From contig CAYZWT010000002.1 of assembly GCA_964482225.1 (NCBI GenBank), positions 86,680 through 150,679 on the forward strand: 64,000 nucleotides of DNA, written 5' to 3'. Made by a program: the position numbers and the translations under genes. The notes beneath the pieces are model-generated. The model did not search any database, was not told where the DNA came from, and saw only the letters and a list, made by a program, of their open reading frames with translations. The stretch's first letter is position 1; every line of letters begins with the position of its first letter. Positions 31,683-43,064 of the stretch are shown piece by piece. This DNA is from an uncultured Anaerolineales bacterium (GTDB taxonomy: Bacteria; Chloroflexota; Anaerolineae; UBA1429).

Positions 31683-31711
31683 TTGACGCAGCGCCGGGTA
31701 AGTGGTATCAT
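31683..31711 (+). promoter_or_regulatory. Sigma70-like promoter: TTGACG, 17-nt spacer, TATCAT, at the head of the glycan cluster
   Basis: Read from the sequence, about 60 nt upstream of the dehydrogenase ATG (31774). Confidence 0.5.
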
Positions 31712-31773
31712 GCGCGGGTTGTCTTTTGGGGGAGCGGTTGCGCGGGCTGGCAAGGCAAGGACGGCGAGACGAG

Positions 31774-33117
31774 ATGACATATACAGATAGCGGCGGGGCG
31801 GGCCATTGGCAGGCGCTGCGCGAACGCATTGATGCGCGCACGGCGCGGATCGCCGTGATGGGCCTCGGCTACGTGGGACTGCCGTTGGCGTTGGCCCTGG
31901 CCGAGGCGGGTTTTGCCGTCACCGGCGTTGACCCTGATGTGGCCAAGTGCGACGCCGTCAACCGGGGTGAGAGCTATGTCGGCGACGTGCCGGGGGCGTG
32001 CGTGGCAGCCCAGGTGGCAGCCGGGCGCCTGCTGGCCGATCCGACGCCTGCGCCCTTGGCCCAGGCCGACGTGGTCATCATCTGCGTCCCGACGCCCCTC
32101 AGCAAGGGCAAAGACCCCGACATTTCGTACATCGTCAAGGCGGCGGACGGCCTCAGCGGCGCCATGCACGCGGGCATGCTGGTCGTGCTAGAGAGCACGA
32201 CCTACCCAGGCACCACAGAAGAGATCCTGCTGCCCCGGGTCGGGCAGAACGGCTTTGCCGTGGGGCAGGATGTCTTTGTGGCCTTTTCGCCCGAGCGCGT
32301 GGATCCGGGCAACAAGACGTACACGATCCGCAACACACCCAAAGTGGTGGGCGGCGTCACGCCGGCCTGCCTCGATCTGGCCCTGGCCCTCTATGCCGCC
32401 ATCGTTGAGCGTACGGTGCCCGTCTCCAGCCCAGCGACCGCCGAGATGGTCAAGATCCTGGAGAACACCTATCGCGCCATCAACATCGGGCTGGTCAACG
32501 AGATGGCACAGATCTGCCACCGCATTGGGCTGGATATCTGGGAGGTGATCGCCGCTGCCAGCACCAAGCCCTTTGGCTATGCGCCTTTCTATCCGGGGCC
32601 GGGCCTGGGCGGCCACTGCATCCCCATTGACCCGCTGTACCTCACCTGGAAGATGCGCGCCCTGAGCGTGCAGACGCGCTTTATCGAGCTGGCCGACGTT
32701 GTCAACGCCGAGATGCCGCGCTATGTGGTACAGCGGGTGCAGGATGCTCTGAACGATGACGCCAAGCCGCTGCGCGGTAGCCGCATCCTGGTGCTGGGCG
32801 TGACGTACAAGCCCGACGTGGCCGATCTGCGCGAGAGCCCTGCGCTCACAGTGATGGACCTGCTGCTGGAGCGGGGCGCACTGGTGAGCTACCACGATCC
32901 CTACATAGAGCGCCTCGCGCTGCCGGAAGCAGGCGTCCTGGCGGGCGTGGCGCTGACCGACGAGGCCCTCGCGGCGGCGGATTGTGTCCTGATCCATACG
33001 GCCCACGCGGGCTATGATTGGGCGCGCGTGGCAGCGCACGCCCGAACGATCTTTGACACGCGCAACGCCATAGAAACCGCCACGTATGATGGAAGCGCGC
33101 GACTCTACCGGCTCTGA
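31774..33117 (+). CDS. Nucleotide-sugar dehydrogenase (UDP-glucose / UDP-N-acetylmannosamine dehydrogenase family)
   Basis: [29 protein letters not shown] is the NAD-binding Rossmann N-terminus. Catalytic-domain GGHCIP-like block present. C-terminal UDP-binding domain. Start moved to MTYTD. Confidence 0.8.
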
Positions 33118-33859
33118 GGCCGCCCGTATCACGGGGGGCGTAGGGCTCTATCTGCGACGCCAGGCCGATGGCCTGACACGCTACATGCTGGAGCAGACGG
33201 CGCAGACCCTGTTCGGCTGGGCGCCCACTCTGGTGGGCATCGCGCTGCGGGCCGTGGCCTATCGCGCCATTATGCGCATGGAAGGCAGCGTTGCCATTGA
33301 ACGGGGGGTGCGCCTGCGCTTTGCCAGCCACATCCGGCTGGGGCGGGGCGTGTATCTCGACGAAGGCGTCTACATCCACGCCTGCCCGCAAGGGGTGCGC
33401 ATCGGCGCGGGCAGTCTGGTGATGCACGGCAGCATACTGCACACGTACAACTTTCGCGACCTGCCCCATGCGTTCATCCATATCGGGCGCGATAGCCTGA
33501 TTGGCGAGTACAATGTGATCCGGGGACAGGGCGGTGTGACCATCGGCGACCGGGTGTACACCTCGCCCCTGGTGCAGATCATGGCCGTCAATCACGTGTT
33601 TGACGATCCGGCGCGCCCGTTTGTGGCCCAGGGCCTCACCGCCGAGGGGATCGTGATCGAGGATGACGTCTGGATCGGCTCCGGCGCGGTGATCACCGAT
33701 GGCGTACGCATCGGGCAAGGGGCAGTGGTTGCGGCAGGGGCCGTTGTCACCCAGGACGTGCCGCCTCATACGCTGGTGGGCGGCGTGCCCGCCCGCGCGC
33801 TGCGCCAGATCGACGGCAGCGACCATGTGCGGGGCAAGCAGGTGTATCTGAATCAGTAG
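33086..33859 (+). CDS. Left-handed beta-helix (hexapeptide repeat) sugar O-/N-acetyltransferase
   Basis: Hexapeptide repeats (IGDRVYTS..., [31 protein letters not shown]). Overlaps the upstream dehydrogenase by 32 nt. Confidence 0.7.
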
Positions 33860-41700: not shown

Positions 41701-43013
41701 GCCGCGTGCATGTCATGTGGAGCGCCAGCCAGACCGAGGGAGGTCCAGGACTGGCTCTCTGGTACGCGCGCTATGCCGATGGCCGCTGGACGCAACCGGG
41801 CGCCCTCATCCGGCCCCAGGAGGGGGTGGCCGAACATCCCAGCCTGGCCCTGGTGGGCGAGCGCCTGCACGCCGTCTGGTCTGGGGGCACGGGTGGGCAG
41901 ATCCAATACGCTGCGTCCTTTGCGGCGGATGCCTACGCAGCCGCAAGCTGGCCTCAACCCACCTGGCTGCCAACCCCATCCACCGAGCGCGACGTCGTCG
42001 CGGCGCATCCGCAGATTCGCGCAGATCTGGCGGGCAGGCTGCACGTGGTCTATGCCGTACCGATCAACCAGACGCGCGGCATTTACTATACGCGCTCCGA
42101 TGATGGCGGCCTCACCTGGTCGCCTGCGCTGCCCGCCTTTGATGCCGCCGCAGAGGGCTGGGCGATGGTGGGGGAGCCTACCCTGGCCGTCGGCCAGAAC
42201 GGGGTTCTGTATGTGGCCTGGCTGCGCATGTCGCTAGTCGGGACGGCGCGCCCGCAGGCGCTCTATCTGGCGCGCTCGATTGATGGCGGCGCCACCTGGT
42301 CGGCGCCCAAGTTGATCGCCGAAGGCGACCTGATGACGCCCGAACTCCTGGTAGCCGGGGCCGAGGAGGTGCATCTGATCTGGCAGGAGGCCAGCGCCGG
42401 GTACGGCGTGTGGCATAGCTATACGCGCGATGGCGGGGATGAGTGGAGTCTGCCTATGCGGGTGCGCGGCCTGGCGCGGTTGGGCGGATACGCGGGCGCC
42501 GCCAGCGACGGCATGGGGCTTGTGTATCTGACAAGCGTGCAGCCCGATGCCAGCGGCCGCACGCAGTTGCTCCAGGCAACCTGGGAATCCGCCAATGAGC
42601 AATGGCGCCTCGAGGAGCCATACCTGCTGCCCTGGAGCGTCCAATCGGCGAGCGGGGCTTGGGTGGCACTGGAGCCGCTTCTGGGCAATCTGGAGGTGGT
42701 GTTGCAGGCCGAGGTCGCCCATGACGAGGGGGCACAAACCGAGTTGCTGCACACGCGCCGGCAGGTCTCGCCGCGCCAGGCGCTGCCCGCGCCTGCGCCC
42801 GGCCTGATCGCCACGCCCACGCCGCAGGCCACGCCTACCGCTCAGCCTACGCCCACCGTGCGGCCCACGGTCAACATCGAGGCGCCCCCTGAAGGCGAGG
42901 GCGCGATCGAGGTGGGCACTTTTACGGTGCCGCTCCTGTCCATCGGCGGGGTGCTGGTCGTGGCCCTGTTGGTGATCGGCGTGCTGGTCGCGCGTGGCGC
43001 GCGGCGGCGCTGA
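38790..43013 (+). CDS. Giant (1407 aa) secreted BNR/Asp-box repeat protein with an internal LysM domain, a PT-rich linker and a C-terminal membrane anchor
   Basis: Signal peptide. At least 7 Asp-boxes (SDDGGVTWG, SWDGGASWA, SEDGGWNWT, SEDGGQTWS, SDDGGLTWS, SIDGGATWS, TRDGGDEWS). LysM (VVEVGDSLSAIAARYGVSPTEIAAANGI) near nt 40258-40395. ATPTPQATPTAQPTPTVRPT linker. C-terminal TM segment followed by RGARRR. Confidence 0.8.
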   Translation: MIYLKFHHRLTVGLVALALLLQPWASRSIAAQGVTWTRPVNLSLSGAASAPQLVGGEGEALYAYWWDQFDGLTVSSLDANGWGAPQPVPISDISYDAGGQPNVSQETGLIVRVTVRTPGTLAGDNAGRVNAFFLGTTAAAQRPLRQSSAAIGEAAWSEPRTIAPGASAWRSVTGPDGAVHLAIMYPGRAAGRQPGIYYMRSDDGGVTWGDLVPVAESLYVRMATQTGTHMQLVPAEDGRLFLTWNEPGTNRALYSWSWDGGASWARPRLVDPNDRTATQAQVALGADGVALMLWQGTTSAGEQALMMRRSEDGGWNWTAPERVLTGLRAQGAQVALQSLPNGGVLLAAGEQADGPALAAWRPAAPDGSAAAGWSSILTLPYPVRDLDALVATGVARWQARLHGDHELALIGADGGGDVWLLGARLSELTWAYPESPAWLEQTQRPDAGWAAPVQLASSGVVAMRAADEPLPVAQQPTAPPVETPPVPTELRHVVEVGDSLSAIAARYGVSPTEIAAANGITQTNIVRVGQELIIPGQAAEPAPEAEPEATPEIGADLGAQLQRAATTLEARPQIVAGRDGQLQALWWDAFEGFTSAWFDGAAWLQPQRAGAFVLPDQQSWLPPLGAEFLSDDAGRVHAFWLESEPVEPGAQDRTLRHNSLTLGAHTWGEPTLVASLVAWRIAVGRDGALLLLYTRPAAGGAPAGLYIRSLSPGEEGWSEPILLREWAPETPLAGDNARLALAVDGDKVYAAWDDAEMDELLWARSEDGGQTWSTPASVGAPDLGPRWPLLAALSGDALLLFQATAGAEAGSLHQVRINTNGQIVGSTEAVLPEIVAPLPEGGRITLQALDGQTALLLSGVGGQTLTVATWHRDRALDPLDDGWSAPQSFGFGPEGPVGGSEGTWQHLEAVLSAGRFTVLGLGPESDLWTISREAADEGWAEIAPPTWSGAVRIGEMRAEDRDIAVLSDGQGRVHVMWSASQTEGGPGLALWYARYADGRWTQPGALIRPQEGVAEHPSLALVGERLHAVWSGGTGGQIQYAASFAADAYAAASWPQPTWLPTPSTERDVVAAHPQIRADLAGRLHVVYAVPINQTRGIYYTRSDDGGLTWSPALPAFDAAAEGWAMVGEPTLAVGQNGVLYVAWLRMSLVGTARPQALYLARSIDGGATWSAPKLIAEGDLMTPELLVAGAEEVHLIWQEASAGYGVWHSYTRDGGDEWSLPMRVRGLARLGGYAGAASDGMGLVYLTSVQPDASGRTQLLQATWESANEQWRLEEPYLLPWSVQSASGAWVALEPLLGNLEVVLQAEVAHDEGAQTELLHTRRQVSPRQALPAPAPGLIATPTPQATPTAQPTPTVRPTVNIEAPPEGEGAIEVGTFTVPLLSIGGVLVVALLVIGVLVARGARRR

Positions 43014-43031
43014 CGCCAGGGGCGTATAGAG

Positions 43032-43064
43032 ACAAGGGCCTCGGGAGGACATCCCGAGGCCCTT
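43032..43064. terminator. Perfect 14-bp hairpin (caagggcctcggga-ggaca-tcccgaggcccttg) between the convergent BNR giant and C25 peptidase genes. Likely bidirectional terminator
   Basis: Perfect inverted repeat centred in the 69-nt convergent gap. Followed by uugugguuc on the + strand and a U-rich run on the - strand. Confidence 0.55.

Follow-up and report, generated by a model that had tools for sequence, protein, structure and literature searches.

Detailed analysis of a 64-kb stretch of DNA from an uncultured Anaerolineales bacterium (contig CAYZWT010000002.1; G+C content of approximately 66%), referred to here in its whole length as the window, revealed a compact operon of six genes, all located on the forward strand at positions 31683-43066. 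These genes encode an NDP-sugar dehydrogenase, an acetyltransferase, a membrane glycosyltransferase of family GT2, a radical SAM enzyme, a membrane protein of the Wzy_C family with a C-terminal TPR domain (hereafter Wzy_C/TPR) and a large BNR/LysM surface protein (hereafter BNR protein). The interpretation that we favour, and to which we give about an even chance of being correct, is that this operon belongs with the slg-like (S-layer-type) loci for protein O-glycosylation, as a compact variant in Chloroflexota, that it works in two layers, and that the BNR protein is its likely acceptor. It was preferred because the S-layer glycosylation (slg) clusters of Gram-positive bacteria provide the best fit and because the genes of O-oligosaccharyltransferases (O-OTases) commonly adjoin those of their targets (PMC3643930). 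With these clusters, the overall arrangement has a precedent; the part for which literature searches found no description is the conserved trio of acetyltransferase, GT2 and radical SAM genes. A preliminary description, made from the DNA alone, had already proposed protein glycosylation for this locus; the idea appears plausible, and the underlying observations were largely right. In particular, domain searches agreed with the entire set of domains it had listed, with the exception of the B12 label given to the radical SAM enzyme.

The fold and predicted topology of the Wzy_C/TPR enzyme, as well as the linkage of its gene to the BNR gene, are shown by the present data. The protein matched Wzy_C (PF04932) with 52.6 bits against a cut-off of 31.7, and TPR_19 was also present. 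Its AlphaFold2 model (pLDDT 91) found the O-antigen ligase WaaL (7TPG) as the best solved fold match, with an E-value of 2e-4 and a TM-score of 0.52 normalised to the target, and a profile search matched the same structure with an E-value of 7e-5. Three residues, R236, R305 and H349, are invariant in two alignments of Wzy_C/TPR homologues (n=45 and n=13); from their spacing, we infer that they are equivalent to the catalytic Arg/Arg/His of this fold, which is conserved as R215/R288/H338 in WaaL and as R224/R298/H349 in PglL (PMC3643930). The WaaL fold and these residues confirm the assignment of the protein to the fold family of O-antigen ligases and PglL, as claimed beforehand. An extra transmembrane helix follows the 12-helix core, so that the TPR domain is predicted to be extracytoplasmic, on the same side of the membrane as the catalytic loop. 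The combination is known from WsfB of Paenibacillus alvei, a Wzy_C-type O-OTase with a C-terminal TPR domain, while WsaB of Geobacillus has its TPR module in a separate protein (PMC2943079).

The BNR protein contains three propeller regions with seven Asp-boxes, P/T/A/E-rich linkers at about residues 465-488, 536-552 and 1326-1371, an excess of acidic residues (149 D+E, 87 K+R) and no cysteine; S-layer proteins are likewise acidic and cysteine-free. Its homologues have in common a signal peptide, a P/T/S-rich stalk of approximately 50 residues just before the C-terminal anchor, a 'GP-x3-P...GG' motif and a basic tail, with LysM being confined to the closest relatives. The Pro/Thr-rich linkers on which the glycosylation proposal had been built are real, and the stalk is conserved among homologues; acceptor sites of O-OTases are found in low-complexity regions rich in Ala, Pro, Ser and Thr (PMC3643930). 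A sialidase (GH33) function was considered and rejected: seven Asp-boxes are present, but the catalytic motif ([FYW]R[IVL]P or R[IVL]P) is absent from the protein, and its matches to sialidases in the PDB were only marginal, with E-values of at least 0.004. The extreme C-terminus of large BNR proteins (42900-43013 in the window) carries a signature of its own, phi-G-P-x3-P-x2-4-G-G followed by a hydrophobic helix and an R/K-rich tail, which was detected in 23 of 33 large BNR open reading frames (ORFs), including those of the related loci L001, L002, L004, L008, L020 and L035, and in none of the genuine non-BNR ORFs among approximately 8900 scanned. In its arrangement it recalls the sorting signals that exosortases, archaeosortases or rhombosortases cleave; when C-terminal sorting domains already known (PEP-CTERM and similar) were tried for the tail, neither NCBIfam nor Pfam gave a match.

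Approximately 100 related loci (numbered with the prefix L) were compared, with the window proteins as queries against the ORFs from all six frames of every locus. The loci were collected from three independent anchors, namely the radical SAM protein (80 genome loci), an alignment of 13 Wzy_C/TPR sequences (15 metagenome loci) and distant BNR homologues; the closest relatives of the window proteins belong to Anaerolineae metagenome-assembled genomes. Counts for the trio refer to 67 loci with enough upstream sequence, and those for the Wzy_C/TPR-BNR pair to 37 Chloroflexota loci that extend 6 kb or more downstream. The trio, with an overall identity of 58-83% across the two phyla, was present in 63-64 of the 67 loci (acetyltransferase in 63, GT2 in 64) and lies in polysaccharide loci of Anaerolineae, Thermoflexales, Caldilineaceae and Ardenticatenaceae and in 16 Acidobacteriota loci, with the radical SAM protein being 56-83% identical among related loci and the acetyltransferase 50-76% identical over Chloroflexota and Acidobacteriota, N-terminus included. 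The Wzy_C/TPR-BNR pair is confined to Chloroflexota, where 19 of the 37 loci have both members, 12 have neither and six have one alone. Normalised conservation scores were 0.65-0.68 for the trio and 0.23-0.27 for the pair, which thus evolves approximately three times faster, as is expected of exposed surface components. Loci anchored on Wzy_C/TPR almost always have the radical SAM gene upstream, and those reached from BNR homologues no more than 28-33% identical again contained the trio or the GT2 gene, together with Wzy_C/TPR and ABC2/Wzt. The order GT2, radical SAM, Wzy_C/TPR and BNR, the conservation of which the preliminary description had proposed to check, does recur in many Anaerolineae, although it does not behave as a single system.

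Larger Chloroflexota loci add a WbaP-like Bac_transf protein, an ABC-2/Wzt (Wzm/Wzt) exporter, a NusG paralogue, DUF362, Acyl_transf_3 and LytR_cpsA_psr proteins, and a second, smaller BNR protein; the WbaP-type initiator and the Wzm/Wzt exporter were found in L001, L016, L024, L035, L078 and L100-L102. One locus, L102, is syntenic and retains the BNR gene, and its Wzy_C/TPR gene (34% protein identity) adjoins an orthologous GT2 gene (59%), with the acetyltransferase and radical SAM genes missing. It is one syntenic cluster that lacks the radical SAM gene, a situation that had been named in advance as a mark of an unrelated insertion; since synteny is otherwise kept there, the radical SAM enzyme appears to be a tailoring step and not a structural requirement. 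Two further observations concern the composition of related loci. In L100-L102 and L002, genes for an acyl carrier protein (PP-binding), an AMP-ligase and an AsnB-like amidotransferase, as well as DUF362 and Acyl_transf_3 genes, recur beside the large BNR gene, and the carrier protein, ligase and amidotransferase may form an acylation or amidation branch of the same pathway for a surface glycoconjugate. In a Thermoflexales-type group (L047, positions 6593-7866; L030, L041 and L044), the trio ends the operon with neither Wzy_C nor BNR, and the SIS (GmhA-like) and HAD (GmhB-like) genes located 5' of the trio in this group suggest that a heptose-type precursor feeds the cassette there.

Of the trio proteins, the GT2 enzyme has four predicted C-terminal transmembrane helices and a DAD motif (DxD) at residue 108. 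In the PDB it matched ArnC with an E-value of 7e-23 over residues 15-319 of 416 (the catalytic and membrane-proximal parts), dolichyl-phosphate mannose synthase (DPMS) with 6e-18 and GtrB with 8e-10, and the best NCBIfam models were AglJ, dolichyl-phosphate hexose transferase and ArnC, all under their equivalog cut-offs. On these family matches, the protein is assigned to the polyprenyl-phosphate sugar synthases, at the level of the family and not of a particular sugar specificity. The radical SAM protein contains a Radical_SAM domain (90 bits) with the CX3CX2C motif as CPGACRFC at residue 287. Its best NCBIfam model was HpnJ (TIGR03471), at 196.7 bits against a cut-off of 577.6, followed by ApyD, BchE and AprD4; matches in the PDB were AprD4 (3e-34) and QCMT (9CCB; 2e-23). 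HpnJ is a putative ring-contraction enzyme that follows the GT2 HpnI in hopanoid cyclitol-ether synthesis, AprD4 acts on an aminosugar and binds no cobalamin, and QCMT is a cobalamin-dependent methylase. Orthology with HpnJ was rejected, its score being far under the cut-off, and no hopanoid genes were found among the window genes near the radical SAM gene. The subfamily comparison that had been proposed for this enzyme thus returned HpnJ as the best model, below its cut-off, with BchE among the next ones. The N-terminal B12-binding domain PF02310 was matched with 17 bits against a cut-off of 32.1, a weak match that spans the full domain length, and was recorded for 40 of 120 homologues among the matches listed. 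The protein is a radical SAM enzyme of class-B architecture, as had been suggested, while the B12 assignment holds as a family-level label only. Cobalamin chemistry and C-methylation, also suggested beforehand, are not established by these nearest relatives (HpnJ, AprD4 and QCMT), and the odds of C-methylation are roughly those of a non-methylating rearrangement or dehydration.

The remaining enzyme, the dehydrogenase, is nearest to UDP-ManNAc/UDP-GlcNAc dehydrogenases, with TIGR03026 at 424 bits and WecC-type models at 254-257 bits, under their cut-offs. It was seen only in the closest relatives (L004-L009, L033, L085-86 and L096) and appears from this distribution to be a lineage-specific accessory gene. 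The GTG codon at 31702, which would extend the protein, sits within the -10 element of the promoter and was rejected, so that ATG 31774 was taken as the start; the orthologue in L004 has 445 amino acids.

Under the interpretation as an slg-like glycosylation locus, the products of the operon would act in two layers. The first, cytoplasmic, strongly conserved and modular, would begin with the dehydrogenase, supplying a UDP-HexNAc-uronic acid, as weak family resemblance suggests; the GT2 enzyme, judging from its family membership, would load a sugar onto polyprenyl phosphate, and the radical SAM enzyme and the acetyltransferase would then remodel the lipid-linked sugar at the membrane face. In the second layer, extracytoplasmic and fast-evolving, Wzy_C/TPR would hand a lipid-linked glycan on to its putative acceptor, the BNR protein, at the P/T-rich stalk, and the glycosylated, membrane-anchored and wall-binding BNR protein would form a surface coat. 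The main lipid-diphosphate glycan is probably made elsewhere in the genome, because the initiator, the exporter, AsnB and NusG sit in the larger loci of relatives, and the trio would add a tailored sugar to it. In slg clusters, the sugar of a side branch is loaded by the GtrB-like WsfH, on a lipid carrier of its own (PMC2943079).

Several results weigh against this interpretation. A search of residues 1-450 of Wzy_C/TPR, following the suggested comparison with PglL models, gave no match to the PglL-specific PglL_A (PF15864) even at E<=5 and retrieved Wzy_C only, and membership in the PglL family was therefore rejected; PilO likewise has neither PglL_A nor PglL_B motifs (PMC3643930). The GT2 enzyme is predicted to yield a lipid-monophosphate sugar, a kind of donor that no known Wzy_C enzyme takes; O-antigen ligases, Wzy polymerases and O-OTases depend on diphosphate-linked donors in every characterised case (PMC10920833). 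The pathway outlined in the preliminary description overlooked this mismatch of donors. Within the 64-kb window there is no phosphoglycosyltransferase, ABC exporter, flippase, GT-C or NusG paralogue. In 12 of the 37 Chloroflexota loci the trio occurs with neither Wzy_C/TPR nor BNR, and in Acidobacteriota it stands beside a TPR-less Wzy_C gene in an EPS (exopolysaccharide) locus with no BNR protein in any locus, so that the absence of the giant protein from related neighbourhoods, which had been envisaged as evidence against a dedicated system, was partly encountered. Moreover, an epimerase gene replaces the BNR gene 3' of some Wzy_C/TPR genes. Finally, a mirror-tree signal of co-evolution between the TPR and BNR proteins proved to be unspecific, with a partial r of 0.56 compared with 0.57 for acetyltransferase and BNR, and was discarded.

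The chief alternative, which carries a minor though appreciable share of the probability, is a role in the synthesis of wall or exopolysaccharides, in which Wzy_C/TPR would polymerise a lipid-diphosphate-linked glycan or ligate it to a wall polymer or to a lipid, the BNR/LysM protein would be a wall-associated glycan-binding or -processing partner and not an acceptor, and the trio would supply an unusual sugar. The Wzc/Wzy-type EPS clusters of Acidobacteriota carry the same trio, exemplified by L068 with its Wzz/kinase, GT2, two GT1s, Bac_transf, epimerase and MBOAT genes, and Chloroflexota relatives with Bac_transf, ABC2/Wzt, LytR_cpsA_psr and NusG paralogues point in the same direction, although no polymer-building glycosyltransferases are encoded in the six-gene operon. 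A sialidase-like BNR_2 propeller and a LysM domain, which binds peptidoglycan, would suit a glycan-binding partner; however, the protein is without the sialidase RIP motif, and its conserved P/T/S stalk, its anchor and the tight pairing with Wzy_C/TPR better fit the role of an acceptor. The absence of a PglL_A match is also in line with a polysaccharide function, whereas the TPR domain is missing exactly where the BNR protein is missing, in the Acidobacteriota.

A second alternative, which we consider improbable, is a self-contained monosaccharide system, in which Wzy_C/TPR would put the flipped and remodelled polyprenyl-monophosphate sugar on the BNR stalk in a GT-C-like role. In its favour, the operon is complete but for a flippase, and the inventory of genes, which covers the 64 kb of the window, contains no phosphoglycosyltransferase or GT-C. 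Also in its favour are the Wzy_C-family gene that both phyla have 3' of the trio (in 23 of 37 Chloroflexota loci and in all 14 Acidobacteriota loci, where the TPR-less gene of approximately 480 codons follows the radical SAM gene), and the GT2 gene that L102 keeps beside Wzy_C/TPR in the absence of the radical SAM and acetyltransferase genes. Against it stand the diphosphate-linked donors that every enzyme of these types characterised so far (O-antigen ligase, Wzy polymerase or O-OTase) uses and the retention of two invariant arginines typical of diphosphate binding. A third explanation, in which the BNR gene is a mere neighbour through chance co-location or co-transcription with no functional link, is disfavoured and very improbable, since its adjacency holds at 28-50% BNR identity from three independent anchors and its presence or absence follows Wzy_C/TPR, despite the 39-nt spacer with a hairpin between the two genes, the NusG gene that occupies this position in some relatives and the absence of BNR from 12 of 37 loci.

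A bolder proposal, given only a slim chance, would make the trio an undescribed two-phylum cassette for radical chemistry on a polyprenyl-phosphate sugar, with the TPR-bearing Wzy_C enzyme of Anaerolineae placing the monophosphate sugar directly on the stalk of a dedicated surface protein. Literature searches found no description of the acetyltransferase-GT2-radical SAM trio, the chemistry of which could be a ring contraction, a dehydration or deoxygenation, or a C-methylation. If this proposal were true, it would provide the first Wzy_C-family enzyme with a lipid-monophosphate donor and the first demonstrated case of a radical SAM enzyme acting on a polyprenyl-linked glycan precursor. There is very little experimental knowledge of the Chloroflexota cell envelope, and the locus, which occurs in many Anaerolineae, points to a candidate surface glycoprotein, to the transferase that probably acts on it and to a pathway for sugar tailoring. 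Radical SAM remodelling of a lipid-linked sugar, if confirmed, would be a new step in bacterial glycan biosynthesis and would possibly lead to a new sugar structure. The trio would then offer a tractable three-enzyme system for enzymology and is the part worth pursuing, being also abundant, with more than 5000 homologues of the radical SAM protein, the best 120 of which are 67-83% identical.

The layout of the operon is compact. The preliminary description counted seven genes; six are present, and a seventh was rejected, the intergenic gaps of 30 nt (acetyltransferase/GT2) and 39 nt (Wzy_C/TPR-BNR) being too short for another. Its gene junctions are exact, including the 32-nt overlap at 33086/33117, which is backed by an acetyltransferase N-terminus that different phyla have conserved, and the ATGA stop/start overlaps at 35137-35140 and 36795-36798. 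The TTGACG-17-TATCAT promoter was likewise located where it had been reported. Promoter-like sites of this type number four in the region, compared with 1.7 expected by chance, so that the count alone is weak; the site was accepted because its -35 and extended -10 elements are kept in register in three relatives (L006, L007 and L008), the spacer DNA of which has otherwise diverged. The 5' leader at 31712-31773 holds GTTGTCTTTTGGGGGAGC; relatives retain part of this sequence, for instance TTTCGGGGGAGC in L007, and it might be a recognition site for the NusG-paralogue antiterminators of related loci. At the spacer between Wzy_C/TPR and BNR, six relatives (L002, L019, L023, L034, L036 and L092) have a NusG-paralogue gene, and the window has a small hairpin that may set differential expression of the two genes. 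The hairpin at the end of the operon had been described as a perfect 14-bp terminator ending at 43064; it exists, its stem is 15 bp long and extends to 43066, and it has no T-run, which rules out a canonical intrinsic terminator. A terminator scan did not list it, and it is probably a bidirectional terminator with no U-tract.

Table 1. Coordinates of the operon genes and associated elements in the window
Feature	Position	Strand	Length	Remarks
Sigma-70-like promoter	31683-31711	+		TTGACG, 17-nt spacer, TG-extended TATCAT; 10/12 matches, TG present
NDP-sugar 6-dehydrogenase	31774-33117 (alternative start 31702)	+	447 aa	Three UDPG_MGDP_dh domains
Acetyltransferase	33086-33859	+	257 aa	Hexapep left-handed beta-helix; first of the conserved trio; 32-nt overlap with the dehydrogenase gene
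Membrane GT2	33890-35140	+	416 aa	Polyprenyl-phosphate sugar synthase type (ArnC/DPMS/GtrB/AglJ-like)
Radical SAM enzyme	35137-36798	+	553 aa	Class-B architecture; start overlaps GT2 stop (ATGA)
Wzy_C/TPR membrane enzyme	36795-38750	+	651 aa	WaaL/PglL/WsfB-fold with C-terminal TPR; start overlaps radical SAM stop (ATGA)
Intercistronic hairpin	38752-38774	+		Perfect 8-bp stem, GTTGCGGC-7 nt-GCCGCAAC; followed by GGGAG ribosome-binding site
BNR/LysM surface protein	38790-43013	+	1407 aa	Signal peptide, BNR_2 and one LysM, C-terminal transmembrane helix, RRR tail
Perfect hairpin	43032-43046 / 43052-43066	.	15-bp stem, 5-nt loop	Between convergent BNR and C25 peptidase genes

The genes flanking the operon are unrelated to glycans, with an MR_MLE enolase gene upstream and a convergent peptidase gene downstream, and the rest of the window is of housekeeping character; neither tRNA genes nor Rfam elements were found in the window. 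The downstream gene (43083-46145, reverse strand) encodes a secreted peptidase C25 (gingipain-like) of 1020 amino acids with C-terminal Ig-like repeats. Its placement, converging on the BNR gene, is kept in the closest relatives L004-L006, L009 and L085-L086, and it is conceivable that this peptidase processes the surface protein. A set of three genes at 20743-26764 (reverse strand) includes one for a protein of 1125 amino acids, in which the UDPGP domain is confined to the vicinity of the C-terminus; the other two products are an NTP_transferase and a methyltransferase of PKMT type that has a regulatory domain. UDPGP denotes a UTP-sugar-1-phosphate uridylyltransferase; L004 keeps this set in synteny with the glycan operon, and nucleotide sugars might be provided by it. 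Just upstream of the operon, two genes lack any Pfam match (28244-30053; 228 aa on the forward and 364 aa on the reverse strand); their counterparts in L004 are located directly 5' of the dehydrogenase gene. A strongly negative AT skew (-0.23 to -0.27) was observed at 34001-38000, the membrane-protein part of the operon; it probably arises from T-rich second codon positions in hydrophobic segments and constitutes no separate feature.

Among known systems, the closest are the slg clusters of P. alvei and Geobacillus stearothermophilus, with the O-OTases WsfB and WsaB and the targets SpaA and SgsE; WsfB has the same Wzy_C+TPR layout, the likeness to WsfB/WsaB being drawn from their descriptions. 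Slg clusters comprise Wzm/Wzt, a WbaP-like initiator (WsaP), an AsnB homologue (wsfA) and, beside the cluster, the target gene sgsE (PMC2943079). Both they and the window operon show stop/start codon overlaps between genes, and the larger relatives of the window locus contain slg-like additions, namely Wzm/Wzt, a WbaP-like initiator and an AsnB homologue. The arrangement had been thought to be without a described counterpart, which does not hold, since slg clusters combine a Wzy_C+TPR O-OTase, an adjacent target and a GtrB-like enzyme (PMC2943079). The window locus differs in belonging to the Chloroflexota, in a putative target that is a C-terminally anchored BNR propeller with a P/T stalk and not a classical SLH-type S-layer protein, in the absence of an initiator, an exporter and chain-building glycosyltransferases from the operon, and in the tailoring pair of radical SAM enzyme and acetyltransferase, which slg clusters do not have. 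The PglL/PilO/TfpO enzymes share with the window locus the Wzy_C domain, the R/R/H residues and a gene located beside that of the presumed acceptor in the same orientation, whereas the PglL_A/PglL_B signature is absent here and the putative target is not a pilin; the source organism is probably monoderm.

In three-component systems (GtrA/B/C, ArnC/ArnT, GacI-L and WsfH/WsfD) the GT2 enzyme is of the same type as here. The scan of the window genes for dedicated flippase or GT-C Pfam families retrieved none, and, in contrast to these systems, neither the operon nor the window has a GtrA-type flippase or a GT-C, the membrane partner is of Wzy_C fold, and the lipid-linked sugar is apparently remodelled by a radical SAM enzyme. 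HpnI/HpnK/HpnJ and the calditol synthase Cds likewise bring together a membrane GT2 and a radical SAM enzyme on a lipid-linked sugar head group; in comparison with the Hpn set, the GT2 enzyme is not HpnI-like, an acetyltransferase replaces the deacetylase, and the locus is one for glycans and not for hopanoids. Finally, with respect to Wzx/Wzy EPS clusters, Acidobacteriota relatives set the trio and Wzy_C among Wzc, GT1s, GT2, Bac_transf and MBOAT genes, whereas Wzc, Wzx, an initiator and repeat-unit glycosyltransferases are all missing from the window operon, in which the Wzy_C enzyme bears a TPR domain and has a surface protein as its partner.

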